Part shown: in pieces, positions 1-34,755 of the stretch | Position numbering within the stretch: the first letter of the stretch is position 1 | How the letters are laid out: the number at the start of each line of letters is the position of its first letter | Source: a virus | Length of the DNA stretch: 37,778 bases | Virus genome (UHGV): UHGV-0340823 | Direction: 5' to 3' (one strand) | Position numbers and translations under genes: made by a program | Notes under the pieces: model-generated | The model's database searches: none | Told to the model about the DNA's origin: nothing | What the model saw: the letters and a program-made list of their open reading frames with translations, nothing else

Positions 1-2
1 TC

Positions 3-512
3 AGCCCGAAGTTCGCTGATACGGGCAAAGCCTACCTGGTTGGCCTGGCCGCCACTGATGATCCAGCCAGTCTGGGTACGGAAATGCTGACATTCAGCGC
101 CAGTGCAGCCCATAACCCGTTGGCAAACCGCAAGCAGAATCCCGCCAATCTTTTTACCGCTGCAGAGGAAACGGTGATCGAACTGGAAGAAATCCAGGAG
201 GACAAGCCGTCCCTGTTTGCCCGCGTCACGGCGCTGTTCACCAAAAAAGAGCAGTCCGACGATGCCCGGTTCTCTGATGTGCATAAGGCCGTGGAGCTGG
301 TCGCCACTGAGCAGCAAAACCTGAGCGCACGCACCGAAAAATCCCTGTCTGAGCAGGAAGAACGCCTGTCTAAGTTGGAGACTGCCCTGCAGGCACAACA
401 GGCCGCCTTTAACGAACTGGTGGACAAGCTGAGCCATGAGGACTGCCGCCAGGACTACCGCCAGCGTGCAACAGGCGGTAACGCCCCTGCTGACACTCTG
501 ACCAATTGCTGA
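3..512 (+). CDS. capsid scaffolding protein, P2 gpO-like (5-prime end outside window)
   Basis: Frame is open from the window edge; charged coiled-coil-like C-terminus; lies immediately upstream of the gpN-like capsid gene. Confidence 0.55.
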   Translation, partial: SPKFADTGKAYLVGLAATDDPASLGTEMLTFSASAAHNPLANRKQNPANLFTAAEETVIELEEIQEDKPSLFARVTALFTKKEQSDDARFSDVHKAVELVATEQQNLSARTEKSLSEQEERLSKLETALQAQQAAFNELVDKLSHEDCRQDYRQRATGGNAPADTLTNC

Positions 513-528
513 TGGAGCATAAAACCCG

Positions 529-1587
529 ATGAAGAAGAATACCCGCTTTGCTTTTAACGCTTACCTGCAGCAGCTGGCGCGTCTGAACGGTGTGGCAGTT
601 GAAGAACTGTCCAGCAAGTTCACTGTGGAGCCGTCTGTGCAGCAGACGCTGGAAGACCAGATCCAGCAGTCCGCCGCTTTCCTGACGCTGATTAACGTCA
701 CGCCAGTGACTGAGCAGTCCGGTCAGCTGCTGGGGCTGGGTGTTGGCAGCACCATTGCCGGAACCACTGACACCACCGCGAAAGAGCGTGAACCTGTCGA
801 TCCTACGCTGATGGTCGATGTGGAATACAAATGCGAACAGACCAACTTTGACACGGTGCTGACCTACGCGAAGCTGGACCTGTGGGCGAAGTTTCAGGAT
901 TTCCAGGTGCGTATCCGTAACGCCATCGTGAAACGTCAGGCACTGGACCGCATCATGATCGGCTTTAACGGCGTGAAGCGTGCGAAAACCTCTAACCGTA
1001 GCGAAAACCCGCTACTGCAGGATGTGAATAAAGGCTGGCTGCAGAAAATCCGTGAGGATGCACCGGATCACGTCATGGGCAGCACCACCACGGGCGGTGA
1101 AACCACACCGGGCGCAGTGAAAGTCGGGAAAGGTGGCGAATATGCCAACCTGGACGCCGTGGTGATGGATGCCGTCAATGAGCTTATCGACGTGGTCTAC
1201 CAGGACGATGACGATCTGGTGGTGATTTGCGGTCGTGAACTGCTGTCTGACAAGTATTTCCCGCTGGTCAACAAAGAGCAGGAAAACAGTGAAAAACTGG
1301 CTGCCGATATGATCATCAGTCAGAAACGCATGGGTGGCCTGCAGGCCGTGCGTGCGCCGTTCTTCCCGCCGAATGCGCTGCTGATCACCCGTCTGGATAA
1401 CCTGTCCATCTACTGGCAGGAAGACACCCGCCGCCGTTCAGTTATCGACAACCCGAAACGTGACCGGATTGAAAACTTTGAATCCGTTAACGAAGCCTAT
1501 GTGGTTGAGGACTACCGCTGTGCCGCACTGGTGGAAAACATCCAGATTGGTGATTTCAGCGCCGCCGCAGCCGAAACCGGAGCGTAA
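529..1587 (+). CDS. major capsid protein, P2 gpN family
   Basis: 352 aa; N-terminus MKKNTRFAFNAYLQQLARLNGV and FTVEPSVQQTL closely resemble P2 gpN as recalled. Confidence 0.85.
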   Translation: MKKNTRFAFNAYLQQLARLNGVAVEELSSKFTVEPSVQQTLEDQIQQSAAFLTLINVTPVTEQSGQLLGLGVGSTIAGTTDTTAKEREPVDPTLMVDVEYKCEQTNFDTVLTYAKLDLWAKFQDFQVRIRNAIVKRQALDRIMIGFNGVKRAKTSNRSENPLLQDVNKGWLQKIREDAPDHVMGSTTTGGETTPGAVKVGKGGEYANLDAVVMDAVNELIDVVYQDDDDLVVICGRELLSDKYFPLVNKEQENSEKLAADMIISQKRMGGLQAVRAPFFPPNALLITRLDNLSIYWQEDTRRRSVIDNPKRDRIENFESVNEAYVVEDYRCAALVENIQIGDFSAAAAETGA

Positions 1588-1590
1588 TCC

Positions 1591-2241
1591 ATGAGCCTGA
1601 GTCCCGCACGGCAGCATCGCCTGCGCGTTCAGGCTGAACAGGCCGCCCGCGAGGGCGGCAGTGTTCGCCACGCATCGGGCTATGACCTGATGCTGCTGCA
1701 ACTGGCGGAAGACCGCCGCCGTCTCAAGGGCGTTCAGTCCACGGTGAAAAAAGCGGAAATCAAGGTGGAGCTACTGCCGAAATATGCCGCCTGGGCGGAG
1801 GGCGTCCTGGCTGCCGGAGGCGCTCAACAGGATGACGTGCTGATGTACGTGATGCTGTGGCGCATTGATGCCGGAGATTATGCCGGGGCGCTGGAGATCG
1901 GGCGTCATGCTCTGCGTCATGGCTGGGTGATGCCGCTGGGTAACCGCAACGTGCAGACCGTGCTGGCAGAGGAAATGTCAGACGCGGCGCAGAGCGCAAT
2001 GCTTGCCGCCACCGGCTTTGATGCGGATCTATTACTGCAGACGCTGGAACTGACAGACGGTCTGGATATGCCGGACCAGTCACGGGCGCGTCTGCATAAA
2101 GCGATTGGCGCTGTCCTGAGTGAAAGCAATCCGGCGTCCGCCCTTAATCATCTCAACCATGCGTTACAGCTCGATCCCCGCTGTGGCGTGAAAAAAGACA
2201 AACAGCAGCTGGAGCGCAGACTGCGCAATGACAGCCGCTGA
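1591..2241 (+). CDS. terminase endonuclease subunit, P2 gpM-like
   Basis: Position directly after gpN, 216 aa, ATG 4 nt after the gpN stop. Confidence 0.7.
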   Translation: MSLSPARQHRLRVQAEQAAREGGSVRHASGYDLMLLQLAEDRRRLKGVQSTVKKAEIKVELLPKYAAWAEGVLAAGGAQQDDVLMYVMLWRIDAGDYAGALEIGRHALRHGWVMPLGNRNVQTVLAEEMSDAAQSAMLAATGFDADLLLQTLELTDGLDMPDQSRARLHKAIGAVLSESNPASALNHLNHALQLDPRCGVKKDKQQLERRLRNDSR

Positions 2242-2336
2242 CAGAACGTGCCCCCGCGCACGGGCGGCACGGGGTGGCGAAAGGCACTGCCACATCAAAA
2301 CCCCGTCCACCGCCCTCTATTTCAGGAGAAAGCAGC

Positions 2337-2801
2337 ATGAAGTTTGTTGCGCCAGAACAGGCACCGGAACAGGCGGAAATCATCAGGAATACGCCGTTCT
2401 GGCCTGATGTGGACCTGTCGGAGTTTCGCAGCGTGATGCGCACTGACGGCACGGTGACGCAGCCGCGTTTAAAGCAGGTTGCGCTGTCGGCAATTTCGGA
2501 GGTCAACGCAGAGCTGTATGAGTTTCGCAGGCGCCAGCAGGTGCTGGGGTATGCCTCGCTGGCAGAGGTTCCGGCGGAACAGCTGGACGGCAAAAGTGAG
2601 CGCATTCAGCACTATTTCAACGCGGTTTACTGCTGGGCACGCGCCATGCTCAACGAACGTTACCAGGACTATGACGCCACGGCGTCCGGTGTGAAGCGGG
2701 GCGAGGAACTGGCGGAAGCAAGCGGTGATTTGTGGCGTGACGCCCGCTGGGCCATCAGCCGGGTACAGGACGCGCCGCACTGCACAGTGGAGCTTATCTG
2801 A
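2337..2801 (+). CDS. head completion/stabilisation protein, P2 gpL-like
   Basis: Synteny; ATG at 2337 preceded by AGGAGAAA; stop overlaps next start (ATGA). Confidence 0.7.
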   Translation: MKFVAPEQAPEQAEIIRNTPFWPDVDLSEFRSVMRTDGTVTQPRLKQVALSAISEVNAELYEFRRRQQVLGYASLAEVPAEQLDGKSERIQHYFNAVYCWARAMLNERYQDYDATASGVKRGEELAEASGDLWRDARWAISRVQDAPHCTVELI

Positions 2802-3004
2802 TGAAAGTGCGTGCGCATCAGTATGACACGGTGGACGCGCTTTGCTGGCGTCATTACGGGCGCACGCAGGGTGTCACGGAGCAGGTACTGAAGGCAAATC
2901 CGGGGCTTGCCGAATACGGCCCCTTTTTACCTCACGGGCTGCAGGTGGAGCTGCCGGACATTCCGACCACCACCACCGTGCAGACCGTCCAGCTATGGGA
3001 CTGA
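2801..3004 (+). CDS. tail protein X (P2 gpX-like)
   Basis: 67 aa; motifs DALCWRHYGRTQGV and ANPGLAE match the gpX pattern as recalled. Confidence 0.75.
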   Translation: MKVRAHQYDTVDALCWRHYGRTQGVTEQVLKANPGLAEYGPFLPHGLQVELPDIPTTTTVQTVQLWD

Positions 3005-3007
3005 ATT

Positions 3008-3223
3008 ATGACGCTTGAGCGAATCAGCGCCTTTATCACGTATTGCATCGCCGTCGTGCTGGCCTGGCTGGGCGATTTGTCCATCAAGGATGCCTCAACG
3101 CTGGGCGGCCTGATGATTGGTGTGCTGATGCTGGCTATCAACTGGTACTACAAACACAAAGCCTACCAGCTTCTGCGCGACGGGCAGATCTCGCGGGAGG
3201 ACTATGAATCCATCAATCGTTAA
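3008..3223 (+). CDS. putative holin
   Basis: 71 aa with two hydrophobic segments and a charged C-terminal tail; sits between gpX and the endolysin. Confidence 0.5.
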   Translation: MTLERISAFITYCIAVVLAWLGDLSIKDASTLGGLMIGVLMLAINWYYKHKAYQLLRDGQISREDYESINR

Positions 3224-3716
3224 ACGCTGCCTTGTCGGGGCCGTGCTGGCTATTGCTGCCACGCTGCCGGGTTTTCAGCAGCTTCACACCTCCGTGGAGG
3301 GGCTGAAACTGATTGCCGATTACGAAGGCTGTCGTCTGCAGCCGTATCAGTGCAGCGCGGGTGTCTGGACCGACGGCATTGGTAATACATCGGGCGTCAT
3401 TCCCGGCAAAACAATCACGGAACGACAGGCAGCAGAAGGGCTGATCTCCAACGTGCTGCGTGTGGAGCGGGCACTGGAAAGGTGTGTGAAGCAACAGCCA
3501 CCACAGAAGGTGTATGACGCTACGGTGTCGTTTGCCTTCAACGTGGGGACGGGCAATGCCTGCAGCTCCACGCTGGTGAAATTGCTCAATCAGCGGCGCT
3601 GGGCGGATGCGTGCCGACAGTTGCCGCGCTGGGTTTATGTAAAAGGTGTGTTTAATCAGGGGCTGGATAACCGCCGTGCGCGGGAGATGGCCTGGTGTTT
3701 ACAGGGAGCAAACTGA
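3204..3716 (+). CDS. endolysin, phage lysozyme family with N-terminal SAR-like segment (P2 K-like)
   Basis: E-x8-C-x5-T catalytic pattern (YEGCRLQPYQCSAGVWT); hydrophobic N-terminus CLVGAVLAIAATLPG; GGGAGG before the ATG. Confidence 0.8.
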   Translation: MNPSIVKRCLVGAVLAIAATLPGFQQLHTSVEGLKLIADYEGCRLQPYQCSAGVWTDGIGNTSGVIPGKTITERQAAEGLISNVLRVERALERCVKQQPPQKVYDATVSFAFNVGTGNACSSTLVKLLNQRRWADACRQLPRWVYVKGVFNQGLDNRRAREMAWCLQGAN

Positions 3717-3717
3717 A

Positions 3718-4017
3718 ATGAAAAAGAAATTAATCAGCGGACTGTTTCTGATGTTATGGATGGCGCTGTTAATCGCAGCAATGGTGTATCCGCAGGGGAT
3801 TTTTCCGGTACTGGCAGCGTCCGGCGTTTGGGTAGCCTGTTTGCTGACATGGGCGGTAATTCCGGTAGCACTGGTTGCGTTAATTAAGAATGGCCCGCTC
3901 TGGCAGGAGTTGAGGGCATCTTTGCTGAAGACAATTACCTGTAACCAGGTGAATCATTTGATACCAACGAGGGTTTTAGTGAAAGGAGGTGAAATCACCT
4001 GTAAGATACTGAAATAA
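3718..4017 (+). CDS. LysA-like membrane protein, probably truncated and chimeric at the Mu-like insertion junction
   Basis: Hydrophobic N-terminal two-thirds; the last ~25 codons run through the repeat-dense sequence that starts TGTAAC at 3940. Confidence 0.45.
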   Translation: MKKKLISGLFLMLWMALLIAAMVYPQGIFPVLAASGVWVACLLTWAVIPVALVALIKNGPLWQELRASLLKTITCNQVNHLIPTRVLVKGGEITCKILK

Positions 4018-4150
4018 AACAGGTGATGTCTGGATGAGCGCTTAAAGTCTATTTGATACCGATTGTGCAATAATTAATCATTTATTCTAAAATCGGCAAA
4101 ACTTTTGATACTACGGATTGACGCTTAAAATGGCTTTAAAAAGGCTTAAA
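3940..4150 (+). repeat. candidate Mu-type left end with three transposase-binding-like repeats
   Basis: TG at 3940; TTTGATAC at about 3957, 4052 and 4104 in shared context; GCTTAAA repeats near 4040, 4123, 4133, 4143; palindrome AGGTGAAATCACCT near 3987. Confidence 0.5.
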
Positions 4151-4211
4151 ACGTTTTTCTCCAGATTGTCTTTAAAGGAGTGTACTACAGCACAAAAATT
4201 GCACCACTCCC

Positions 4212-4796
4212 TTACGCACTAGCCTTTTTCTGGGTTACATTTAAATGATTAACCTTAGCTTCACATTCTTCATAAATCTCTCTTACAGTATCATCGGGTA
4301 ACTCTTGTAGACTCAATGCTAGTGCTCTTTTGACTCCGCTCAATGAGTGCAGTTTTTGAATATCTGTATCAAGCAAAACGGTTAGTAGTTCGGCCCCTTT
4401 TCTGATCAATAAGTTGGACAAAATCTCTTGTTCAGATGAAGTTAGCGAGTCCCACGCCCTCATGATGATGGAATCACTATCATCAATTCTTTGTTTTTTT
4501 GTTCTTTTTGTTTGTTCAATTGGTTCTTTTTTCATGCTTGGCTCATCACCATAACCATGGACTAGCCACTCCATAGATACATGTTCTCTTTCTGCAATGT
4601 TCTGGAGATGGTGCTTTCTTGGTTGTGGTGGCGGCTGATTGTTTCTCCTTTTGTAGTAGTTCTGCAATGTCTGAACGTTTATCCCCCATGCTCTAGCCGC
4701 CTCACTTCTCGATTTGTAACGCTCTGCAAGACGAAAAATCCGTTCGATCACTGGTTCTTTTCCTTCGTCGAGAAAAGAACTGTTTTTCATGTTCAT
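4212..4796 (-). CDS. Mu-type repressor (c-like)
   Basis: Minus strand, divergent from ner; about 195 aa from the MNMKNSS start (track ORF extends to 4925); AT-rich immunity-region composition. Confidence 0.65.
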   Translation of the reverse strand: MNMKNSSFLDEGKEPVIERIFRLAERYKSRSEAARAWGINVQTLQNYYKRRNNQPPPQPRKHHLQNIAEREHVSMEWLVHGYGDEPSMKKEPIEQTKRTKKQRIDDSDSIIMRAWDSLTSSEQEILSNLLIRKGAELLTVLLDTDIQKLHSLSGVKRALALSLQELPDDTVREIYEECEAKVNHLNVTQKKASA

Positions 4797-4963
4797 GCTC
4801 TCAGGTTCCTTTGTATTTATCTTATTGATATTAATAACAAAAACACCACAAAGAATAAAAAGAACAAAATACCTTGATTTGGTTCTTTTGTTTGTTCTAT
4901 TATTTACCCGTACAGATATCCGCACGAATATCCGCGCGGGTAACTTTTTAGAATAGAGGAAGT
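4797..4963. promoter_or_regulatory. divergent early regulatory region between repressor and ner (candidate operators and promoters)
   Basis: AT-rich 167 bp; inverted repeat AGAACAAA (about 4861) / TTTGTTCT (about 4891); direct repeat ATATCCGC twice (about 4916 and 4928). Confidence 0.5.
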
Positions 4964-5212
4964 ATGAGTAGAAGAGAAGTTTCAGATCACGATTGGCCGC
5001 CTGAAATCATCAAGGCGCGCTTACACATGGCTGGCTTATCACTGCGCTCTTTATCTTTAAAGGCTGGTTACAGCAGGGATTCGCTGAAAAGCGTATTACG
5101 TACTCCTTGCCGACCGTATCAGCAAATAATTGCTGATGCTCTTGGGGTATCGCCTGAAGAAATCTGGCCCAGTCGATACCAGGTTAAGAGCTATATGAGA
5201 AAGGCGTCATGA
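4964..5212 (+). CDS. ner: Ner-like DNA-binding protein
   Basis: 82 aa; motifs LSLRSLSLKAGYS and IIADALGVSPEEIWPSRY match Mu Ner as recalled. Confidence 0.85.
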   Translation: MSRREVSDHDWPPEIIKARLHMAGLSLRSLSLKAGYSRDSLKSVLRTPCRPYQQIIADALGVSPEEIWPSRYQVKSYMRKAS

Positions 5213-5213: not shown

Positions 5214-7304
5214 ATGTATGTCATTGCAAAAGAACTGATTGGCGCGCCCGGAATGCCTGCTACAACAAAAGGTATTCGCCAGGCATTACAACGTTACGTA
5301 CAAGGGAAAAGCTGTTGTTCCCGTCGTCGCTCAGGCTCTAAAGCAACTGAATACAGCATCGACTGTTTACCTGAAGTGACGCAGCAGGCATTACGTGAAC
5401 GCTACGCCCTGCAACTGATGACTCAAAAAGTCGATGAATCACCGGTTCCGGTGGTGACAAAGGCCAGACGCTCACCTGACGTGGTTGATGCGGTGGAGGC
5501 ATATCGCGGTTCACCACAACTGATGGTCGAACGCCTCAATGCCCTGACTGAAAAACAGCGCCAGGTGGCAGAGGCACGAATCGCGATTGTCAGCGAGGTG
5601 CTGAAATTCGCGCAACAACCCGGTTTCAGCTGCGCTAGAGCCATCCGTTTTATCGTTGACCGCCTGTCACGCTCACAACTGGACGAGCGCATAGTGGCAA
5701 TGGTTGAGACGGCGAACGCCAAAAAGGGAAACAGCCGCGTGTTGAGTGAAATCACGCTGAAACGCTGGATTGCGGCCTTTAACAAGGCACAGAACGCCGC
5801 TGAACGCCTGCTTTTACTGGCACCGGGTAAACGTCAGGAAATAAAAGCCGAAGATATTAACTGGCTGCCCGAATTTCTGGCGCAGTATCGCCAGTCAAAC
5901 GGCCGACCAATGACCGAGGCTTACGAGGATTTTGTTGCTGAATGGCAGCACCGGCACGCTGATGAGCCTTATATGCTCGATATCATGCCGTCTTATGACA
6001 CCATTCGCCGCGCAATGAAGAAACTGCCGGAAGTGGTGAAACAAAAAGGCCGGGTGACCGGCAGTGAATACCGCCAGCTTGAGGGATTCACGCGCCGCGA
6101 CTGGTCCAGAATGCCGGTGAACTATGTCTGGATTGGTGACGGTCACGGCATGAAGCTGAAATGCAGGCACCCGGTTCACGGGCGGCCATTTGCACCGGAA
6201 GTAACCTTTGTTATCGATGGCGGTACACGCTTTGTGGTGGGCTGGAGCCTTGACCTGGCTGAAAATGTTTTCGCCGTAGCCGGTGCCATACAGCACGGTA
6301 TTCGACATCACGGCAAACCGTTTCTGTATTACTCGGATAATGGCTCCGGGGAAACCGCCGACATCCTGGATAAGGAGATTGTGGGGATACTACCGCGACT
6401 GGGGATTAATCACCCGACCGGGATTGCCGGTAATCCGCAGGGACGGGGCATTATCGAACGGCTTAACCGCACATTACCGATGCGCATAGCCCGTAAATAC
6501 CGCACCTATTTCGGGAAAGGTGCAGATCGCGAGACGTTACGCAAAACCAACCGCGATTTACGCTCGGCATTCACTGCCCTGCAACAGGGCAAGCGGCTGA
6601 ACGCCCGGCAGCAGTCAGCGATGCGTGATTTACCGTCCTGGTCTGAACTGATTGATGCCATTCGTGACGGCGTTGAGTGGTACAACAACCGGCCGCACGA
6701 TGAATTACCCATGAAGCCGAACGGTAAACATTACAGCCCGGCGGAGTTCAGAAAAAAACGCCTGGCAGAAGAGGACACGGAAATTGAATGGCTGTCCGAT
6801 GTGGAATTGCGGGACATGTTCCGGCCGATGGTGGAACGCCCTGTAAGACGCTGTGAAATACGCTGGCTGAATAATATTTACTACGCGCCCGAGCTGCGTG
6901 ATGAACATGGCCGCAAAGTGCTTATCAGCTATGACATTCATGATGCCGAACGAATTACCGTACGTCGCCCGGATGGCAGCGTGATTTGCGAGGCGGTATG
7001 GGACGGCAATAAACGCGAAGCCTTCCCGGTCAGCGCGGAATACTACAAACAGCAGCAGCGCCTTAAAGGTATGCGTAAACGCGCAGAGGAAAAAATCCGT
7101 GATGCCGAGGATGAGGTTGTCAACGTGCTGGAGCACAAGCCGCAGGAGCCATGGCTGGAAAACATCTACCGCCCGGTGGGTAATACGGTGGCCGTTCAGC
7201 AACCTGCCGTTGATGATGAACCTGATGAAGAATACGAGCGTAATTTCCAGCGGGGATTGCAGTTGCTGGAAGCGAAATTAAAAGAAAATGACCCGCTGGC
7301 CTGA
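5214..7304 (+). CDS. DDE transposase, MuA-like
   Basis: 696 aa directly after ner; WIGDGHG motif analogous to the MuA catalytic region. Confidence 0.85.
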   Translation: MYVIAKELIGAPGMPATTKGIRQALQRYVQGKSCCSRRRSGSKATEYSIDCLPEVTQQALRERYALQLMTQKVDESPVPVVTKARRSPDVVDAVEAYRGSPQLMVERLNALTEKQRQVAEARIAIVSEVLKFAQQPGFSCARAIRFIVDRLSRSQLDERIVAMVETANAKKGNSRVLSEITLKRWIAAFNKAQNAAERLLLLAPGKRQEIKAEDINWLPEFLAQYRQSNGRPMTEAYEDFVAEWQHRHADEPYMLDIMPSYDTIRRAMKKLPEVVKQKGRVTGSEYRQLEGFTRRDWSRMPVNYVWIGDGHGMKLKCRHPVHGRPFAPEVTFVIDGGTRFVVGWSLDLAENVFAVAGAIQHGIRHHGKPFLYYSDNGSGETADILDKEIVGILPRLGINHPTGIAGNPQGRGIIERLNRTLPMRIARKYRTYFGKGADRETLRKTNRDLRSAFTALQQGKRLNARQQSAMRDLPSWSELIDAIRDGVEWYNNRPHDELPMKPNGKHYSPAEFRKKRLAEEDTEIEWLSDVELRDMFRPMVERPVRRCEIRWLNNIYYAPELRDEHGRKVLISYDIHDAERITVRRPDGSVICEAVWDGNKREAFPVSAEYYKQQQRLKGMRKRAEEKIRDAEDEVVNVLEHKPQEPWLENIYRPVGNTVAVQQPAVDDEPDEEYERNFQRGLQLLEAKLKENDPLA

Positions 7305-7375
7305 AATAAAAAAATAACCCGAGCGGCGACTCAGGTTATTTGATTAAACAAGGTATCAAATGAGAGGTTAATAAT

Positions 7376-8308
7376 ATGACTGATATTAACGATGTAATCA
7401 AGACCATTGATGAACTTATTGATGGCGGCGTACTGACGCAGTATGCCATCGCCAGAGAGGCGGGAATTTCCGATGGCACATTATCGGCTTTCCGTAAGGG
7501 AAAATATAAAGGCGATAACGCTGCTGTGGCTGCTTCCCTGCGTTCCTGGTATGAGAACTGGAATAAACAAAGCGCACTGCCCGAGCCGCCGCAGTTTGTG
7601 GAAACGCAGACAGTCCAGGAGCTGCGCGCGCTGTTTCAGGCGGTCCGCCTGATGGGCTGTATTAACGTCATAGTGGGCGTGCCCGGGGTGGGTAAAACGG
7701 CCACCGCCCGTAATTACTGCCAGGAGCAACCAAACACCTGGATGATCACCCTGTCTCCCGCGCATTCCAGCGTCACGGAGTGTCTGCTGGAGCTGGCCGA
7801 TGCGCTGGGGATTGATTATACCCGCGCGAACAAAGGGGCGTTATCCCGCGCCATCCGCCGTCGCCTGATGGGAACGCGTGGACTGGTGATTGTGGATGAG
7901 GCGGATCATCTTGGTATTGACGGTCTGGAGCAACTCCGGGCAATCCAGGACGCCACGGGGATCGGGATGGTGCTTATTGGTAACCCGCGCGGACTGTTTA
8001 AGGGGGGGCGCCGCGCCGTTGATGATTTATCGCGCCTGTTCAGCCGTCTTGCCCGTACAAAACAACTTCGCAAGGCCAAAAAGGCGGATGTGCTGGCTAT
8101 TGCCAGGGCGTGGGGTATCAGTGGTGAGGCCGAGCTGGCTGTCATGCAGGCTATCGCTGAAAAACCGGGAGCATTACGTGTTCTGACACATACGCTTAAC
8201 CAGGCATGGATCACCGCCAGTGGTGAAGGCGCGGCGCTGACAGAAAAACATATTAATGCGGCCTTTAAAGAGGTTTATACCAACCCTGAATTACTCTCAC
8301 AGGTGTGA
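7376..8308 (+). CDS. transposition ATPase, MuB-like (AAA+)
   Basis: Walker A GVPGVGKT; DEAD-like VIVDEADHL; position after the transposase. Confidence 0.85.
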   Translation: MTDINDVIKTIDELIDGGVLTQYAIAREAGISDGTLSAFRKGKYKGDNAAVAASLRSWYENWNKQSALPEPPQFVETQTVQELRALFQAVRLMGCINVIVGVPGVGKTATARNYCQEQPNTWMITLSPAHSSVTECLLELADALGIDYTRANKGALSRAIRRRLMGTRGLVIVDEADHLGIDGLEQLRAIQDATGIGMVLIGNPRGLFKGGRRAVDDLSRLFSRLARTKQLRKAKKADVLAIARAWGISGEAELAVMQAIAEKPGALRVLTHTLNQAWITASGEGAALTEKHINAAFKEVYTNPELLSQV

Positions 8309-24029: not shown

Positions 24030-24976
24030 TGCCTACCCCGATTACACCGGCGATGATCACCGCCCTGATGACGGGCTACCGTTCTGATTTTCAGGCCGGG
24101 ATGTCCATGGCCCCGTCGCAGTACAAAAAAATTGCGATGACCGTGCCCTCCACCTCGAAATCCAACACCTACGGCTGGCTGGGGCAGTTCCCGCAGTTCC
24201 GTGAGTGGATCGGCTCCCGCGTCATCGAGAAGATGAAGGCCTATGGCTATGCCATCGTGAACAAAACCTTTGAAGGCACCGTCGCCATTAACCGTGATGA
24301 CTTCGAAGACGATAACCTCGGTATTTATTCCCCGTTGTTCCAGGAGATGGGGCGCGCTGCTGCGGCACAACCGGATGAACTGGTCTTTGCTGCTCTTCGT
24401 GACGGGATTAATGCGGCCTGCTATGACGGCCAGAACTTCTTTGATACCGAACATCCTGTTTACCCCAAAGTGGATGGCTCCGGGGATGCGCAGATGGTCA
24501 GCAATATGTTTGTGGCAAAAACCGGCTCTGTCGGTGCACAGGCGGATTACAGCGGTCCTGCCTGGTATCTGCTCGACTGTTCACGCGCAATCAAACCGCT
24601 GATTTATCAGGATCGCCGTAAGGCTGAACTGGTTGCCCAGACCAAAGTCGATGAAGGTCGCGCATTCACCGATAACGAATTTGTGTTCGGTGCTTCCGCC
24701 CGTCGCAATGTGGGCTACGGCTTCTGGCAGATGGCCTACATGATGCAGTCACCGCTGACGCTGGATGCACTGTGGCACGGCTGGTCAGCCATGCGCGAAT
24801 TTACCGCTGACGGTGGCCGCAAGCTCGGCATCAAACCCACCCATATTGTTGTCCCCACCTCGCTGGAAAAACAGGCGGTGCAGCTGCTGGAGCGTGAACT
24901 GTTCGCAGACGGAAACGCCACCGTCTCTAACGAGATGAAGGGCAAGCTGGAGCTGGTTGTCGCGGATTATCTGTAA
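24029..24976 (+). CDS. major head subunit, Mu T (gp34) family
   Basis: 315 aa; ATG overlaps the preceding stop; synteny. Confidence 0.75.
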   Translation: MPTPITPAMITALMTGYRSDFQAGMSMAPSQYKKIAMTVPSTSKSNTYGWLGQFPQFREWIGSRVIEKMKAYGYAIVNKTFEGTVAINRDDFEDDNLGIYSPLFQEMGRAAAAQPDELVFAALRDGINAACYDGQNFFDTEHPVYPKVDGSGDAQMVSNMFVAKTGSVGAQADYSGPAWYLLDCSRAIKPLIYQDRRKAELVAQTKVDEGRAFTDNEFVFGASARRNVGYGFWQMAYMMQSPLTLDALWHGWSAMREFTADGGRKLGIKPTHIVVPTSLEKQAVQLLERELFADGNATVSNEMKGKLELVVADYL

Positions 24977-26364: not shown

Positions 26365-26643
26365 ATGAAAACCATCTTTATCAAACCCGCGCCGGGACGC
26401 CTGATTCGTGATCCCGACACAATGCGCCCGCTGGCACAGGAGGGGGAGGAAAAAACCTTCACGCCGTTCTGGTGTCGGCGTCTTGATGACGGCGATGTCA
26501 TTCAGCCTGGAAGCCTGCCGGAAAGTGAAGCTCCCGCCGTGACGGAAGAAAACAGTGATAACGACATGGCGATGAATGCCGACCCGGTTATGGACAGTGA
26601 CACGGTATCCGGCCCCGCAGTCTCAGATGAGGAAACGCTCTGA
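26365..26643 (+). CDS. Mu gp38-like small protein
   Basis: Synteny immediately before the sheath gene. Confidence 0.45.
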   Translation: MKTIFIKPAPGRLIRDPDTMRPLAQEGEEKTFTPFWCRRLDDGDVIQPGSLPESEAPAVTEENSDNDMAMNADPVMDSDTVSGPAVSDEETL

Positions 26644-28145
26644 TGATCAGTTTTAATCAGATTGGGGATGATAACCGCATCCCGCTTGTACAGATTGAAT
26701 TTGATAATTCCATGGCCGTCACCGGCACCCCGGCGCAACGTCAGTCTGTGTTGCTGTTCGGGCAGGCTGCCATGAAAGACACCGCCGTACAGGGTTCCGG
26801 TCAACTGGACATTCCTGTACGTATTACCCGTGCATCTCAGGCAAGAGAGCTTTGGGGGCGTGGTTCCATGATTGCGCTGATGGTGGCGGAATTCATCGCC
26901 ATTAATCCCGACACAGAGTTATATGCCATTGCCCAGGGGGCGGGCACTGGTCAGCCGCAGGCGTGTGTGATGAATATCATTGGTACGGCGACGGCAGACG
27001 GTGTGTTATGCGTCTATATTGGTGGTCGCCGTTATCTGCTGGCTGTCGGTACAGGGCAAAAAGGTAAAGCGCTTGTGGAAGCACTTGTGAAGGTCATTAA
27101 CGCCGATGTTGATGCACCATTCACGGCTTATGCAGCAGAAGTCAGTGGAGATAATGCTGAAGGCCTTAAAGGCAGTATGGGGGTGAATGCCCGTTTTACC
27201 GGTGAGTGCTCAGTTCATGATTTACGTGTGAACTATTACGACGGTGAAACCACCCCTTCCGGCCTTACATTGCAGATAACATCTCCAAAACAGAAGGCCA
27301 CAAACCCGGATATCACCCGCAGCGTGGCGGGGATGGGGGATCGTCAGTACAACTACATCGTCATGCCCTATAAGGATGACGCAAACCTGAAGGTGATCAG
27401 CGATGAACTGCTGAAACGCTGGGGACCGGTCAAAATGTCCGATGGAGTCATCTGGATGGCTCACACGGGCACATTCGGAGAAGTACAGGCGTTCGGTGAA
27501 AAACGTAACGATTTTCTTGCTACCTGTACGGCTATTCCAAAAGCACCGGAACCCGATTATCTGTGGGCAGCCTCGGTGTGTGCGACATGCGCACCGTCAT
27601 TATCTTCGGATCCGGCACGTCCACTTCAGACACTGGCCATCACGCCCCGACTGGCACCCGCCGCAGCGGATCGTCTGACCCGTGAAGAGCGAAACAGCCT
27701 GCTGTGGAGCGGTATCGCTACAGTAACCGTCGCAACCGGTGATGTGGTGCAAATCGAACGTCAGGTGACGATGTATCGTCAGAACGCCTATGGAGACAAT
27801 GACCCCAGCTATCTGGATGTGGAAACCGTCTACACCCTTTCATATCTGCGTTACTCCCTGCGAACGTTCATCACGCAGCGTTTTCCGCGCCATAAGCTGG
27901 CGGATAATGGCACACCGGTGAGCGCGGGACAGAATATTGTAACCCCGGAAATCATGACGCTTCAGTTGATTGCTCTGGGTGAGGAATGGGTCGATCAGGG
28001 GTTGGTCGAGAACCTGGACACTTTTAAAAAGAATCTGCTCGTGGAGCGTAACACATCAGATCGCAACCGCCTTGATGTGTTGTGCACACCGGACCTGGTT
28101 AACCAGTTCCGCTTTATGGCCGCGCAGATCCGTTTCATTTTGTGA
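26643..28145 (+). CDS. contractile tail sheath protein (Mu L-like)
   Basis: 500 aa; sheath-tube-chaperone-tape measure order. Confidence 0.8.
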   Translation: MISFNQIGDDNRIPLVQIEFDNSMAVTGTPAQRQSVLLFGQAAMKDTAVQGSGQLDIPVRITRASQARELWGRGSMIALMVAEFIAINPDTELYAIAQGAGTGQPQACVMNIIGTATADGVLCVYIGGRRYLLAVGTGQKGKALVEALVKVINADVDAPFTAYAAEVSGDNAEGLKGSMGVNARFTGECSVHDLRVNYYDGETTPSGLTLQITSPKQKATNPDITRSVAGMGDRQYNYIVMPYKDDANLKVISDELLKRWGPVKMSDGVIWMAHTGTFGEVQAFGEKRNDFLATCTAIPKAPEPDYLWAASVCATCAPSLSSDPARPLQTLAITPRLAPAAADRLTREERNSLLWSGIATVTVATGDVVQIERQVTMYRQNAYGDNDPSYLDVETVYTLSYLRYSLRTFITQRFPRHKLADNGTPVSAGQNIVTPEIMTLQLIALGEEWVDQGLVENLDTFKKNLLVERNTSDRNRLDVLCTPDLVNQFRFMAAQIRFIL

Positions 28146-28153
28146 GGTAATTC

Positions 28154-28519
28154 ATGAGCGGAAAACAGTATCAGGGGACCGCAACCATCCGTGTGAACGG
28201 TCAGGAGTTTGCCACGCTGGAAGGCGCAACCTTCTCGCCATCCGGTTTTGAACGTGAAGCCGTGAAAGGCGCAAAGGTCTACGGTTACCGGGAGAAACCC
28301 CGTGAGGCCACGCTGGAATGCAAATTTCCGGCCGGTGGTGAAGGCTCGCCGGCAACGGATGAAATCAACAGCTGGAACGCAGTCACAATTGAATTCGTCG
28401 CCGATACCGGTGAAGTCCATATGATGACCAAAGCCTGGAGTGTGGAGCCCGCGTCTTTAGATGGTGGTGGCGATATCTCTGCGAAGTTCGCCAGCGCAAC
28501 CAGTACCCGTGTTCAGTAA
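28154..28519 (+). CDS. tail tube protein (Mu M-like)
   Basis: 121 aa after the sheath. Confidence 0.7.
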   Translation: MSGKQYQGTATIRVNGQEFATLEGATFSPSGFEREAVKGAKVYGYREKPREATLECKFPAGGEGSPATDEINSWNAVTIEFVADTGEVHMMTKAWSVEPASLDGGGDISAKFASATSTRVQ

Positions 28520-28528
28520 GGAGCAGTT

Positions 28529-29005
28529 ATGGCATCACGTAAGAAAAAAACAGCGGTTTCAGACGAAGGCGTCATGGAGGCCATTCGTGAAGCGCTTGAA
28601 GGAGGCGATCCGCGCACCGCCGGTCTGACTGAACAACTGGCTAATGGGTATGTGGATCTGCTGGATGGTCTGCCCTGCGGTGAAAGCCGTGAATACCGTG
28701 TCACATTCCGGGAACTGACCGCGAAAGACAGCATTGATGCTGAATCAGAAGCCGAGAAAGTGATGGATACACGTAACGGTCCGATGCTGATTGCGTCTCC
28801 CTCTCTACGGGGGATTGCACTTCTGCGCCGTCAGATTGCCGCTGTCGGTGAGATTCAGGGACCGTTATCCCTCCGCCAGGTTGGGCAGTTGAGTGAACGT
28901 GACCTGTCCCGTCTGATGGCGGCGGTCGGCATTCTGGATACAGCCATGGCCGGAAAGCTGGCGGCTGACCGGGGGCGAGCAGGCGCAGTGTCGGGCGCAG
29001 ATTGA
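28529..29005 (+). CDS. tail assembly chaperone (Mu gp41-like)
   Basis: Position before the tape measure; a start-less open frame overlaps its 3-prime end. Confidence 0.55.
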   Translation: MASRKKKTAVSDEGVMEAIREALEGGDPRTAGLTEQLANGYVDLLDGLPCGESREYRVTFRELTAKDSIDAESEAEKVMDTRNGPMLIASPSLRGIALLRRQIAAVGEIQGPLSLRQVGQLSERDLSRLMAAVGILDTAMAGKLAADRGRAGAVSGAD

Positions 29006-29132
29006 AGAAGCGGCGATAGTACTGGGGATGGTGACGAAAAGCGGCCCGGAATGGGCGCTTAACCTCCCCTTATCGCAACTTTACCGGCACTGCCAACAAA
29101 CGGAAAAAATCCTTAAAGCGAAGCAGTAAACG

Positions 29133-31199
29133 ATGGCAAAAAATCTGAAAGCCTCCCTGATAGTCGATCTGCTCGGCAATATTTCCGCTAAATCTCGCCA
29201 GTGGTCGCAGGAGCTGGGGGCATTTTCCCGTTCCGGACAGTCGGGGCTGGGTGGTCTGGGTAATGCAGCCCGTCGTGCCGGTCAGGAAACTGATCTTGTT
29301 GGCACCCGTATGCAACGTATGCTTGCCGGAGTCCGTGGCAGTATCCGTTCAGTCACCTCTGATTTTGACCGGCTTCAGGGAAGTATTACCGGTACGCTGG
29401 GACGTATCAGCAACCTTTACGGGATGCTGGCCGGTGGTGCGGCTGCGTACGGATTTAACAAGGCTTTTCTTCGTCCCGCATCAGAGATGGAGAATTACAT
29501 TCTTCGTCTCAATGCCATCAATCATGGTGATACATCCAGAACAGAAGACGTCCGTAAGTGGGCTGTCCAGAATGCAAAAGAAACCACGTGGGGGCTGGCC
29601 GGCGTTATGCAGGAATACGCTTCCAGCCGTGGTTTTGGTATGAGTGATAAGGAAGCACGTAACTTTATCACCATGCTTCAGGATCAGGGGGGCTATCACG
29701 GCTGGTCCCTTGCTGACGCGCAGGGCGCATCCCTTCAGCTCAAACAGATGTATTCCCGTGGTGCAATTCAGGCGGCTGATGCCAGTATTCTGACGGGCTA
29801 CGGTATCAACGTTTATCAGTTGCTGGCTGAAAAACTGAAAGTTGATCAGAAAGTACTTCGTGATCTGGGTGGCAAAGGTAAGCTGGGACCGGACAGTATT
29901 CGTCTCCTGTTCCAGGTCATGGCAGAACAGGCAAAAGGTGCACAGAAAAATGCCATGAACTCCTGGACGGGCATGACTGCCATGATGGGGGATGTATGGG
30001 ATGACTTTGCCCGTGACGTCATGGCCAAAGGACCTTTTGACAGCCTTAAAAACAGCCTTAAAGGCTTTCTGGATTATGCTGATGAGGCAAAGTCCAGCAG
30101 TCTTCAGGAAAAACTGGCGGCACAGACAGCGGGTGCCCTGAATCAGGGCTTTGAGTATGCCCGTGATGCGGCAACTGGTTTTTACCGGGCTATTCAGAAG
30201 GTACGGGAAACGCTTCAGGCGCTGCGTGATGCAGGGTATGGCGATACGCTGGACGGTATCGCTCGTGGTGCACAGACAGCTGCGAAATATCTGCTGTATA
30301 TGTATCTGGCCACCCGGGCACTGAAACTGGTCAGGGCTGTTGGTGGAAGTGCGCTGCGTCTTGGTGCAACACCGCTTCGCTGGGGCATGTCCACCGCTTC
30401 TGTTCTGACCTCCCCCTTCCGCAAACCACAGACCACCGTTCCCGAAACCATACCGGGGCGTGGCGGTCGGTTCCTGAATTTTCTGACGGGGGTTAACCCC
30501 GCAGCCATTCAGCCCGTAAATGTCATGAACTGGCCAGCCGGTGCCATGGCGGGGGGCGTTTCTGATGTGATCAGCGGAGGTGAAGGAAAACGTCAGCGTG
30601 GACGCACCAGACGCGGGCCGGGGCGCGGACGCCCGGTGACGTCGGTTGTTACTGTACCGGCAACGCCGCCAGCCTCACCCCCTCAGGGCTTCTTCGGGCG
30701 CATGATGAGCCGTGCCGGTGGCTTGCTTTCATCCGCCGGTAACCGGCTGGGTATGGGGCGTTTCTCCGGCCTTTTCCGCCGTGCCGGTGGGGTTGCCGGT
30801 CGTTTGGGCGGTGGAGCCCTTTGGGCCGGGGCGATGGCCGCCCCTGTCCTGCTGGACGATAGTGCCAGTGCTACCAACAAGGGGGAGGCTGTCGGCTCTC
30901 TTGCTGGCAGCATTGCCGGTGGAGCGCTGGGAGCTGCGGCAGGACCTGTCGGCGTGGCTATCGGTTCAACGGTGGGAAGTTATCTCGGTAATTATCTCGG
31001 CGGCTGGCTGACAGAAGCCTGGCAAAAACTACGGGGGGATACCGATAACAGCGGAGGAAAAGCCGCTGAACAGGCTTCTGCCCGTGTGGAGCTGGTTGCC
31101 CCGGATGGCTGGAGCGCAAGAAGTATTGATATCAATGAAACCTCCGGCAGTTCGCTGGATGTGGATGTCTGGAACGGAGGTAACTATGTCCACTGGTGA
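29133..31199 (+). CDS. tail tape measure protein
   Basis: 688 aa; Gly/Ala-rich repetitive C-terminal half; synteny. Confidence 0.8.
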   Translation: MAKNLKASLIVDLLGNISAKSRQWSQELGAFSRSGQSGLGGLGNAARRAGQETDLVGTRMQRMLAGVRGSIRSVTSDFDRLQGSITGTLGRISNLYGMLAGGAAAYGFNKAFLRPASEMENYILRLNAINHGDTSRTEDVRKWAVQNAKETTWGLAGVMQEYASSRGFGMSDKEARNFITMLQDQGGYHGWSLADAQGASLQLKQMYSRGAIQAADASILTGYGINVYQLLAEKLKVDQKVLRDLGGKGKLGPDSIRLLFQVMAEQAKGAQKNAMNSWTGMTAMMGDVWDDFARDVMAKGPFDSLKNSLKGFLDYADEAKSSSLQEKLAAQTAGALNQGFEYARDAATGFYRAIQKVRETLQALRDAGYGDTLDGIARGAQTAAKYLLYMYLATRALKLVRAVGGSALRLGATPLRWGMSTASVLTSPFRKPQTTVPETIPGRGGRFLNFLTGVNPAAIQPVNVMNWPAGAMAGGVSDVISGGEGKRQRGRTRRGPGRGRPVTSVVTVPATPPASPPQGFFGRMMSRAGGLLSSAGNRLGMGRFSGLFRRAGGVAGRLGGGALWAGAMAAPVLLDDSASATNKGEAVGSLAGSIAGGALGAAAGPVGVAIGSTVGSYLGNYLGGWLTEAWQKLRGDTDNSGGKAAEQASARVELVAPDGWSARSIDINETSGSSLDVDVWNGGNYVHW

Positions 31200-32601
31200 C
31201 GGCAAGGGGTCGTTTCGCGGTGTGCCATTCCTGGTATTTCGCGAACAGCGTGAACGCGGTGGGCGTAATATCGTTCGCCGGGAATATCCGTTACAGGAAC
31301 GGGGCGGTGCAGATGATCTGGGGCCAAAACTGCCGGAATACACCTTCACCGTACTGGTGATGGGAGAGGATGTTCACACGCAACGAAGCCGTCTTCGGGA
31401 TGCCCTTCGCGCCCCCGGGCCGGGTGAACTTATGCACCCGGAATATGGCACTTTAAACGTGATGATAAACAGCTTTGAAAGCCGTTACAGCGCCGATGAA
31501 CAGCGCATTGTTGAATTCACAATTAATGTGTCTCCGGTCAGTGATGAAACAGCGCCAACGGCCAGCCAGGATACGGCTGCACTTCTGGAGGCCAGAAGTG
31601 GTGCAGCCCTGAACAGCATGTTTGGTACGCTGGCAAGTGGCTGGACCGTCATTTCCGATGGTATGCATGATGTGCAGGCAATGGCTGAAACCATCAGTGA
31701 CAAAATTGAGGCGCTGGAAAATTCCGTTTCCGGGATGGGGATTGTGCAGGATATCAGTGCCTTTACGGCCACGTTTACGGCGCTTAAAGGTAACGTTACC
31801 GCATTGCTCACAAGTCCGCAGCGAATGGCGGAATCACTGGCGGGTATGTTTGTCACCCTGACGGCATTACCCACGATCCCTGCGCTCTCCCTTACCCGGA
31901 AGAATACCGGCAGTACCGTAACCGGTGCTTCCGGGGGGAATGGCGGTACGGTTTACACCAGAGGCAGTGGAGGCGAATTGCCCGCAGGGAGTCTGGATGT
32001 GGTGATGCAGAGCACCCTTGAACAGGGACTTCCTCAGCTCTACAGAACCTTATCCTCCCTGCGTTATGCGCTGACAGAACAGGATGATCCACAGCGTCTG
32101 ATTGGGCTTACCCCGCCAGCTCAACAAAATATCCGGCTTCTCAGGGCAGTGATGCAGAGTGCAGCCGTGGTGTCTCAGGCTCAGACAGTGGGAAAATTGC
32201 TGGATCAGGTAATCAGTCTTGAAACAGCCCGGACAAGTAATAACACGAAGTCAGCCGGTCTTGTCTGGCTGGAAAGTGCCGCAGATGTTGAGCGTATCAA
32301 CCGTGATTTGAGTGATGCGCTTGAATTACAGGTCATGGATTTGTCTGCGCTGGGGTATACCTCCACAGCCCTGACTCTCAGGGATGCCCGCCTGGCGTTG
32401 ACAGAAGATCTTACGGTCAGGGCGGTCTCCCTGCCGGGGGCTGTACAGGTATCCGTCCGGGCGACAGAACCTGCACTGGTAACCCTGTACCGTGAAACAG
32501 GAAACAGCACCCGCTGGCAACATTTTGTGCGTCGTAACAACATTTCAGACCCGCTTTTTGTGCCGGGGGGAAGTACTGTGGAGGTGATCAGTGAACAGTA
32601 A
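31186..32601 (+). CDS. DNA circularisation protein N-like (Mu gp43 family)
   Basis: ATG at 31186 overlapping the tape measure stop; synteny. Confidence 0.65.
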   Translation: MSTGDGKGSFRGVPFLVFREQRERGGRNIVRREYPLQERGGADDLGPKLPEYTFTVLVMGEDVHTQRSRLRDALRAPGPGELMHPEYGTLNVMINSFESRYSADEQRIVEFTINVSPVSDETAPTASQDTAALLEARSGAALNSMFGTLASGWTVISDGMHDVQAMAETISDKIEALENSVSGMGIVQDISAFTATFTALKGNVTALLTSPQRMAESLAGMFVTLTALPTIPALSLTRKNTGSTVTGASGGNGGTVYTRGSGGELPAGSLDVVMQSTLEQGLPQLYRTLSSLRYALTEQDDPQRLIGLTPPAQQNIRLLRAVMQSAAVVSQAQTVGKLLDQVISLETARTSNNTKSAGLVWLESAADVERINRDLSDALELQVMDLSALGYTSTALTLRDARLALTEDLTVRAVSLPGAVQVSVRATEPALVTLYRETGNSTRWQHFVRRNNISDPLFVPGGSTVEVISEQ

Positions 32602-33721
32602 AGTGGAGCTGTATCTTGGCAGCCAGATTTTTACCGGCTGGGTGACGGTCAGTGTACGACGTTCTCTTGAACATCTTGCGGGATCATTCGAGCTGGGCCT
32701 TATGCTCCCCGGTGAACCGGTTCCGGCGATCATCTCGCCCGGTCAGTCAGTGACACTGAAAATTAACGGTCAGACAGTCATCAGCGGCTGGCTGGATCAG
32801 GTGAATCAGAGTATCAGCGCCACGCGTTATCAAATTACTATCAGTGGCCGCGATAAAACAGGTGATCTGGTTGACTGCTCTGCTGTTCACCAGGGAAGTC
32901 AGTGGCGGAACCGGACGCTGGCCCAGATAGCCGCTGATTTGTGTGCGCCGTTTGGTATCAGCGTTCGCTGGCAGGTTAATGATGTCACGGCAGAGAAACC
33001 GTTCGCATCTTTCACGCTTGAGAACTCAGAAACAGTGGCGGATGCACTCACACGAGCCGCACGGCATCGTGGGGTTCTGGTAACCAGTAACGCTGTGGGT
33101 GAACTGGTTTTTACTCAGGCTGGAAGCAAGCAGACCGATACGCTTGTACTGGGTGAGAATTTGCTTGAGGCCATTTATAACGATGACCACCGTATGCGCT
33201 ACAGCGAATACCGAATCAGAGGACACGGGCGCGGAGGCGGCAAATCCGGTGACAGCGCAAAACCAGCCAGCCTGTCTGCACCGGTCGGGGTGGTGAATGA
33301 CGAAGGTGTTACCCGTTACCGTCCGAAAATTGTTCTCGCCGATCATCACATTGATACCAGCGGAGCCACACAGCGGGGATTACGGGAAATGCGCCGGGCA
33401 GTGGCCCGTTCCTCCCGCTTTACCGCCGTGGTGCGTACCTGGTTCCGCTCAGACGGCACGTTGTGGGATCTTAATCTGCTGACGCGCGTTACCGCTTCAC
33501 GGTTTGGTATTGACCAGCGTGATCTGCTGATTTGCCAGGTTGAATTCTCCCTGGACGCACAAAAAGGCGAAACCACGCGGCTGATTCTTGCCCCCCGTGA
33601 TGGTTTTATTGTTCCTGCGGAGCCTGACAGTAAAGGTCGGGGCGGAAATGATGCCGGTGGCGTGGATGCCTTTATCCATCAGCAGATGAAAAAACAGGGG
33701 ATCACCTTTAATGATAAATGA
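32591..33721 (+). CDS. baseplate hub / tail protein P-like (Mu gp44 family)
   Basis: GTG start overlapping the previous stop; synteny. Confidence 0.65.
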   Translation: MNSKVELYLGSQIFTGWVTVSVRRSLEHLAGSFELGLMLPGEPVPAIISPGQSVTLKINGQTVISGWLDQVNQSISATRYQITISGRDKTGDLVDCSAVHQGSQWRNRTLAQIAADLCAPFGISVRWQVNDVTAEKPFASFTLENSETVADALTRAARHRGVLVTSNAVGELVFTQAGSKQTDTLVLGENLLEAIYNDDHRMRYSEYRIRGHGRGGGKSGDSAKPASLSAPVGVVNDEGVTRYRPKIVLADHHIDTSGATQRGLREMRRAVARSSRFTAVVRTWFRSDGTLWDLNLLTRVTASRFGIDQRDLLICQVEFSLDAQKGETTRLILAPRDGFIVPAEPDSKGRGGNDAGGVDAFIHQQMKKQGITFNDK

Positions 33722-34325
33722 AGAGGTTTTCAGCCGCCTTATAGCCCCCGTTATGCGTGGGGTGCGTCTTCTGATTGGACGGGGGGTTCTTACCGGTATC
33801 CGTGATGAGCTGAAAATGCAGAATGTACAGCTTACCGGAATGGAGGGGGAAACGTTTGATGATGTTGAACGGCCACAGCAGTACGGACAAATCAGCGTAC
33901 CCTTACCGGGGGCGGAGCTATTCTTCGCCTGTCCTGGTGGTCAGCGTGATCAGGCCGTTGTTCTGGTGGTTGATGACCGGCGTTACCGCCCATCCGGGCT
34001 GACTTCCGGCGACAGTGGGCTTTATCACTACGAAGGGCACCGCATTCGCCTGACAAAAGACGGACGCATCATCATCACCTGCCGGACGCTTGAGATTTTT
34101 GCTGATGAGCGCGTGAGCGTTGATACCCCTGAAACGGTCTTCACCGGCGATGTCATCGTGGAAAAAAATCTGCATGTGAAAGGCAATCTTGCGATCGATG
34201 GAACCGGTATGTCAAAAGGCACATTTACTATGTCTGAAGCCAAGATTGCGGGGATCACCTATTCCGGACATGTGCACCATGACAACGGCAAAGGAAGTAA
34301 AACAGGAGGACCGGAAAATGGCTGA
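33711..34325 (+). CDS. baseplate spike / assembly protein (Mu gp45, gpV-like)
   Basis: Synteny; about 200 aa. Confidence 0.6.
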   Translation: MINEEVFSRLIAPVMRGVRLLIGRGVLTGIRDELKMQNVQLTGMEGETFDDVERPQQYGQISVPLPGAELFFACPGGQRDQAVVLVVDDRRYRPSGLTSGDSGLYHYEGHRIRLTKDGRIIITCRTLEIFADERVSVDTPETVFTGDVIVEKNLHVKGNLAIDGTGMSKGTFTMSEAKIAGITYSGHVHHDNGKGSKTGGPENG

Positions 34326-34755
34326 TATTGCCGTGATATGGAAACAGGGGCATGGTGCACTGCAACTGAATGGCGCAGATCTTCTGACAGACAATACATT
34401 GCAGACGGCAGTGATTATCTCACTGTTTACTGATCGTCGAGCCCTGGCATCAGATGTCATACCAGATGGTACCCGCGATCGCCGTGGATGGTGGGGTGAC
34501 AGCTTCCGGGAATACCCCATAGGCTCCCGTCTGTGGTTGCTGAGCCGGGAAAAAACGCTTACTTCGGTGGTAAGTCGTGCACAGGCGTATGCGGATGAGG
34601 CGCTGGCATGGCTTCGTCAGAGCGGCGTTGCATCGGATGTTGTGTGTCGTGCTGAACGAACGGCGCACGAGCAACTTTCATTATTTGTTGAAATCACGCT
34701 GCCGGACGGCAGTCGGGAACCCATGATTTTTTATGCTGATATTAAGGGGGAATGA
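34318..34755 (+). CDS. baseplate protein (Mu gp46, gpW/gp25-like)
   Basis: ATG at 34318 overlapping the previous stop. Confidence 0.6.
   Translation: MADIAVIWKQGHGALQLNGADLLTDNTLQTAVIISLFTDRRALASDVIPDGTRDRRGWWGDSFREYPIGSRLWLLSREKTLTSVVSRAQAYADEALAWLRQSGVASDVVCRAERTAHEQLSLFVEITLPDGSREPMIFYADIKGE

Follow-up and report, generated by a model that had tools for sequence, protein, structure and literature searches.

Positions 3940–4112 of the window, the 37,778-nt stretch of viral DNA analysed here, very probably represent the left end (attL) of an Sp18-type Mu-like prophage of E. coli inserted into a lysA-like gene of a P2-family prophage, and the three copies of TTTGATAC in this end very probably serve as end-binding sites of the phage's own transposase. 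This assignment, made by comparing sequences, upholds the original prediction of a Mu-type left end in this region, which is supported by the phage–host boundary, by inverted repeats at the right ends of relatives, and by a Mu-like gene order.

The phage–host boundary had been expected between 3930 and 4060, with a terminus starting with TG. Comparative alignment located the boundary at 3939/3940, and the proposed TG (3940–3941) was found exactly there. Homology to P2-family prophages continued at 100% identity up to 3939 and stopped at that position. Mu-like homology began at 3939/3940 in the two BLAST hits, and independent insertions fixed the terminus at 3940. From 3940 onward, the sequence matched regions annotated as "inserted Bacteriophage Mu-like phage" in two Stx-phage records (LC727881.1 and LC727895.1), where TGTAACCAGGTGAATCATTTGATACC... 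was preceded by unrelated flanks. Since P2 homology ends at 3939 and the same left end follows unrelated flanks elsewhere, we placed the boundary at the TG. The attL on the plus strand is 173 bp long and begins 5'-TGTAACCAGG. Upstream of it, window positions 1–3939 correspond to the late region of a P2-family prophage, comprising capsid, head completion, gpX, holin, and lysozyme (Pfam Phage_lysozyme) genes and the lysA-like gene. The 5' part of this last gene (DNZ54_00345 family) occupies 3718–3939 on the plus strand and is the target cut by the insertion; the intact gene was found at 1019–1396 of L017, in which the site reads ...gacaattacc/cgaaaag, the slash marking the point of insertion. 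The gene is broken after about codon 74, and the ORF at 3646–4017 is a chimera running 78 nt into the Mu-like end. This is a prophage-in-prophage insertion, and it inactivated a lysis gene of the P2-type prophage that received it.

A survey of 5426 complete E. coli genomes found the 173-bp left end in 231 of them, at a wide variety of loci; the interrupted genes included dcuC, tssM, mhpD, cah, paaA, cho, and rhsD among others. Unrelated flanks preceded the identical left end in nine further insertions (L001, L002, L005–L009, L020, and L021). Insertion is random. The exact left boundary is thus fixed for a widespread STEC prophage type.

The repeat TTTGATAC had been reported three times in one orientation, and exact plus-strand copies were indeed found to start at 3957, 4052, and 4104, with the spacings of 95 and 52 bp that had been given. 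The window contained five copies in all against 0.96 expected, a number reached in 0 of 100 shuffles; given five random hits, the Monte Carlo probability of three same-strand copies falling within 160 bp was ~8e-5. The L1 core (3957–3964) starts at nt 18 from the left terminus, and the entire L1 site probably extends over ~3945–3968. The L2 core, TTTGATACCGA, lies at 4052–4062 with TTTGATAC at 4052–4059 and starts at nt 113 from the terminus. L3 (4094–4112) consists of CGGCA, a 5-nt spacer, and TTTGATACT, and its core (4104–4111) starts at nt 165; all three sites are on the plus strand. The extended consensus proposed for them, AAnnCnTTTTGATACCnACGAnTG, was only loosely right: across variants the invariant sequence was limited to TTTGATAC and short flanks, namely a CGA that follows L2, a T that follows L3, and, 10 nt upstream of the latter site, CGGC-A. 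The two extra copies of TTTGATAC are located at 7353–7360 on the minus strand, between genes A and B, and at 24440–24447 on the plus strand, inside the major head gene, and their flanks match partly (CATTTGATACC and CTTTGATACCGA). As the sister lineage described below has no counterpart with its own motif at those places, these two copies are probably due to chance.

Five left-end variants were aligned to examine conservation. Positions 1–89 of the left end were almost invariant among them. From position 90, two variants (the L006/L008 class) diverged strongly, but L2 (TTTGATACCGA) and L3 (CGGC-A plus TTTGATACT) remained unchanged, and beyond position 173 the similarity between immunity types was lost. 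Homology to the Stx-phage-borne and O157 relatives also broke at 4113. Conserved cores amid diverged sequence are the footprint expected of protein-binding sites, and this pattern delimits attL at 3940–4112. The variable stretch from L3 to the end of the repressor gene (4113–4211) is part of an exchangeable immunity module.

No right end is present in the window, which ends at 37,778 in tail-fibre genes; the sole inverted TTTGATAC in it lies at 7353 in the A–B intergenic region. Right ends were therefore read from eight related prophages, including two nearly identical to the window phage. The same repeat in inverted orientation had been anticipated at the right end, and three inverted copies of TTTGATAC (R1–R3) were present there in all eight relatives. 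Counted from the terminus, the left-end cores start at nt 18, 113, and 165 and the right-end cores at nt 18, 40, and 75; relative to the terminus, all of them point the same way in each variant, and one variant has L3 at 164 rather than 165. L1 and the first right-end core thus stand at an equal distance, 18 nt, from their termini, and TTTGATAC was the only invariant motif common to both ends. All eight right ends finish ...AGTATCAAA...GGTATCAAATGAAATGCAAATCGGTATCAAAAAAA(T/A)CGCCGCGCTATA; about 100 nt were conserved, followed by divergence along with the cargo genes. A weight matrix derived solely from the three right-end sites in a different genome ranked L1 first and L3 second in the whole window, and L2 only seventh.

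The two nearly identical relatives, E. coli SW070917 and DETEC-S792, had a left end and immunity region 99–100% identical to those of the window and the same right end, and their tail modules were 99.8–100% identical over the ~80% of the 33800–37778 query that matched. Their right ends matter because the tail of the window phage is only 75–78% identical to that of ordinary Sp18-type copies. The first 22.6 kb of the Mu-like phage in the window were 96.5% identical to L007. When 26500–37778 was compared with L007, L005, and L006, the tail/baseplate region was 75–78% identical or unmatched, and the two strains above were the only ones among the 5426 complete E. coli genomes to share the window's tail module at 99.8–100% identity over most of its length. 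Because its tail module differs to this extent, the window phage is a mosaic member of the Sp18 type. As to cargo, the right ends of the closest relatives and of LC727895 carry com followed by a DNA cytosine methyltransferase gene in place of com and mom (2732–3938 in L018, 6187–7393 in L019, and about 700–870 in L003), which suggests that a Com-controlled C5 methyltransferase was swapped into the mom position. We also observed that in Sp18-type prophages RefSeq places a "tRNA-OTHER" feature between the genes for head morphogenesis and virion morphogenesis (17992–18079 in L005 and 23405–23484 in L007); ARAGORN (tRNA) and Rfam scans of the window found nothing.

Downstream of the left end, the early genes follow the Mu order of leftward repressor, ner, A, and B, according to Pfam and the RefSeq annotation of relatives. 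A candidate immunity repressor of 194 aa (4212–4796, minus strand) matches Mu c in position and orientation. It gave no Pfam hit, and its counterpart in L007 and L020, which are of the same immunity type, is annotated as a hypothetical protein. The divergent regulatory region between repressor and ner (4797–4963) contains the inverted repeats AGAACAAA ... TTTGTTCT at 4860–4905, which are likely operators and, by analogy, a possible transposition enhancer. Next come a ner-like early regulator (4964–5212, plus strand; Pfam HTH_35, E = 2.5e-19), a DDE transposase of 696 aa (5214–7304, plus strand; Mu-transpos_C, E = 2.2e-17; HTH_Tnp_Mu_1, E = 4.6e-6) with D309, D375, and E415 as candidate catalytic residues from motif positions, and a MuB-like AAA+ target-DNA activator (7376–8308, plus strand; Phage-MuB_C, E = 4.6e-25; AAA_22). 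Over its full length, the transposase showed 23% identity to MuA, and so distant a relationship fits an unrelated binding motif. Candidate binding sites, L1–L3 and R1–R3, are hereby supplied for a transposase of only this identity to MuA.

The protein search yielded more distant relatives only in a sister lineage (L014–L016; Shigella flexneri SFBU1023 and E. coli VL40), whose transposase was 76% identical; a transposase search of genome contigs gave only two loci, both representing one insertion site. In the left end of this lineage, a different 10-mer, TTCAAGATAA, occurs three times at spacings of 71 and 52 bp. In the full copy of E. coli VL40, the TTCAAGATAA cores start at 18, 89, and 141 on the left and, inverted, at 18, 40, and 75 on the right. 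Alignment of the transposases of the window and the sister lineage gave 30–60% identity over columns 1–200 and 77–95% (mostly 82–95%) over columns 201–640. The repeat therefore covaries with the N-terminal 200 residues of the transposase, which supports the repeats as putative transposase-binding sites. L006 has another immunity region and retains TTTGATAC; the differences in its transposase are concentrated in the first ~60–80 residues, with 13% identity over alignment columns 1–40 and 60% over 41–80. These alignments suggest two N-terminal modules in the transposase: a short one that would track the immunity/operator region, and residues ~80–200, which would track the end repeat. A natural pair of closely related transposases with different end motifs and the same site geometry lends itself directly to mapping what determines specificity.

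A perfect palindrome and GCTTAAA repeats had also been pointed out in the left end, and they fared differently. The palindrome, AGGTGAAATCACCT (14 bp, 3987–4000), was confirmed and proved invariant in all five left-end variants. It lies in the L1–L2 spacer (3965–4028), which contains the palindrome and CAGGTGA and is nearly invariant across all left-end classes. Copies of CAGGTGA were found at 3946–3952 (plus strand, before L1), 3995–4001 (minus strand), and 4020–4026 (plus strand). AGGTGA was not found in the right end, and the spacer has no right-end counterpart. GCTTAAA was present at 4040, 4123, and 4144; it was neither enriched (six copies in the window against 3.6 expected, and 15 of 100 shuffles reached six) nor conserved in related left ends, and a role for it as a conserved functional end element was ruled out on these two grounds. 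The A-tract repeats GCTTAAAA, GCTTTAAAAA, and again GCTTAAAA at about 4123–4151 lie in the exchangeable immunity module. Phased A-tracts of the type GC(T)TTAAAA or GTTCAAAA were seen just inside L3 in all lineages including Mu (4121–4152 in the window, about 495–525 in L005, about 1905–1930 in L014, and about 190–215 in Mu, L010), their details not being conserved; they may constitute intrinsically bent DNA adjoining the end.

Hence, we tentatively regard the L1–L2 spacer as a separate element peculiar to the left end, a packaging (pac) signal or an architectural site being favoured. The more specific proposal is that the palindrome and CAGGTGA form a pac site for the small terminase outside the transposase-binding array and that GCTTAAA merely belongs to incidental A-tracts of the immunity module; on the sequences compared, we rate it a little below an even chance. 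The invariance of the spacer, the lack of AGGTGA at the right end, and the behaviour of GCTTAAA all agree with it. Groenen and van de Putte in 1985 and Harel in 1990 reportedly mapped Mu pac within the L1–L2 spacer. The spacer of the sister lineage differs from that of the window and resembles nt 28–75 of Mu (AACCGGGAnGAnATT...CGGGA), which we take to be the region where pac was mapped, and the small terminase is 46% identical to that of the sister lineage and 56.5% to that of Mu. A pac or architectural role is thus favoured because the spacer is invariant and peculiar to the left end, the sister spacer resembles the Mu pac region, and the terminases have diverged. On the other hand, CAGGTGA was enriched throughout the window (12 copies against 4.2 expected), so that its clustering could partly reflect composition, and an HU/bending site or an additional contact for the transposase would account for the spacer equally well. 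A palindrome acting as terminator or promoter was rejected, since consensus scans did not rise above the shuffle background and a 6-bp stem with a 2-nt loop makes an implausible RNA hairpin.

For the TTTGATAC repeats themselves, the binder might be another phage protein (the repressor, Ner, or some accessory factor, for example), with the transposase reading other bases of the end; we consider this highly unlikely. The Mu repressor also binds the Mu ends, and the sister lineage with its different repeat has different repressor and ner genes as well. Since most of the other early genes of that lineage differ as well, the covariation described above is formally compatible with another co-inherited DNA-binding protein. 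However, the repeat was the same across four repressors, namely those of 194 aa in the window, 176 aa in L005, and 213 aa in L006, and an XRE-type protein of 181 aa in L009, and this constancy argues against the repressor as the binder. The window and L005 encode nearly the same Ner, but its operators would be expected between c and ner and not at both termini. Moreover, the repeat is placed symmetrically, 18 nt from both termini, and no other invariant motif is common to them. Least probable of all, with hardly any likelihood left to it, is that the repeats are sites of a host architectural protein: read on the opposite strand, GTATCAAA, they include WATCAA, half of the IHF consensus, TATCAA being the first half of WATCAANNNNTTR. 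However, the full consensus was found nowhere in the window, and in a sister phage from the same host species the corresponding positions are occupied by TTCAAGATAA. This speaks against a host factor, whose site would not change between phages of one host. The lack of a full consensus and the motif switch ruled out the IHF-site reading.

The termini did not form a TG...CA pair, because the right terminus was TA-3' (...GCGCTATA-3') in all eight right ends. The left end begins with TG in the window and in most copies, and with TA in the L009 class. In that class (L009 1499, E. coli STEC1587), the left end begins 5'-TATAACCAGG instead of TGTAACCAGG, so that both termini are TA; the L009 insertion shows a clean 4-bp duplication, GTGA. 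The termini of the sister lineage are TA...TA, and its VL40 copy reads TATGAC...CTTTA with a 4-bp duplication of TTCA. In total, nine independent insertions had 4-bp duplications: CATC, AGAG, AGAA, AAAG, TCCG, GTGA, CGAC, TGGA, and TTCA. When the empty mhpD site was rebuilt with a single AGAA, it matched the intact mhpD at 300 of 300 positions. A 5-bp duplication was ruled out, as the fifth base disagreed in seven of the nine insertions and the empty site fits 4 bp. In the window, TACC at 3936–3939 is the predicted left copy of the duplication, and the right junction of this copy is predicted to read ...GGTATCAAAAAAA(T/A)CGCCGCGCTATA, then TACC, then CGAAAAGAAAACGTATTTACC..., the remainder of the P2-type lysA-like gene. 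GenBank records already annotate the same boundaries and 4-bp duplications; our literature search found no description of Sp18-type binding sites, the TA terminus, or the 4-bp duplication.

It is fairly probable that transposases of the Sp18 type and the sister lineage are natural Mu-family DDE enzymes that cleave and join TA-3' ends without requiring CA-3', use a 4-bp stagger, and owe their end recognition to a swappable N-terminal module of ~200 residues (TTTGATAC versus TTCAAGATAA). In that reading, TA-3' would always stand at the right end, and at both ends in some variants. With their consistent TA-3' right terminus and 4-bp duplication, these phages depart slightly but genuinely from the textbook description of Mu, which matters for prophage finders that seek TG...CA ends with 5–6-bp duplications.

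A mechanism can be proposed by analogy with Mu. The N-terminal DNA-binding region of the transposase (~residues 80–200) would read L1–L3 and R1–R3, and the subunits at L1, R1, and R2 would pair the two ends to form the transpososome core, a step probably aided by the operator region and DNA-bending proteins. Each 3' end would then be nicked at its terminus, which reads ...ACA-3' (bottom strand) for the left end and ...ATA-3' (top strand) for the right end, and joined with a 4-bp stagger to a target that the MuB-like ATPase would present.

Finally, we compared this end with known systems. Like Mu, the phage has three sites per end, L1 and R1 adjoining the terminus, a 5'-TG left terminus, the gene order c, ner, A, and B, random insertion, and, going by Sp18, Mu-like packaging. 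The R1–R2 spacing is 22 bp, equal to that of the contiguous R1/R2 sites of Mu. The L1 / L2–L3 layout also resembles that of Mu, as originally predicted, with 147 bp from L1 to L3 against ~145 bp; the Mu sites were located here by a MuA consensus that fits Mu's own sites only with 4–5 mismatches, and their positions are therefore approximate. In contrast to Mu, the TTTGATAC core is unrelated to the 22-bp MuA consensus, the right end finishes in TA-3' where Mu has CA-3', R3 is oriented as R1/R2 whereas it is inverted in Mu, and the L2–L3 spacing is 52 bp instead of ~40 bp. Similarity to the repressor was looked for in residues 1–100 of the transposase and none was detected, unlike in Mu. The sister lineage shares the core architecture, the L2–L3 spacing of 52 bp, the TA termini, and a 4-bp duplication (TTCA), and differs in its TTCAAGATAA core and in an L1–L2 spacing of 71 bp as opposed to 95 bp in the window. 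Pseudomonas phage B3 and other saltoviruses are likewise transposable, with a DDE transposase and a MuB-like ATPase; the target duplication is 5 bp in Mu and 6 bp in B3 (PMC8705779), against 4 bp in the Sp18-type group.

The closest known system is Sp18 of E. coli O157:H7 Sakai, together with the Mu-like phages of STEC (e.g., LC727881.1 and LC727895.1), in which the 173-bp attL is 99–100% identical. The early and head regions are ~96% identical to those of the Sp18 type, and relatives sharing modules with the window phage carry the Sp18-type attR; the O157 copies have a different immunity module, and the tail/baseplate module of the window is the divergent part (75–78% identity). Like Mu DNA, that of Sp18 undergoes efficient packaging and no circularisation (PMC2669165), and the STEC group of this type has been described as transposable (PMC10132054, PMC2669165, and PMC7430833). 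The window thus holds a transposable-phage end of a known kind in a known phage group; what is modestly new is the map of binding sites, their covariation with the transposase, and the finding of a TA terminus and a 4-bp duplication.
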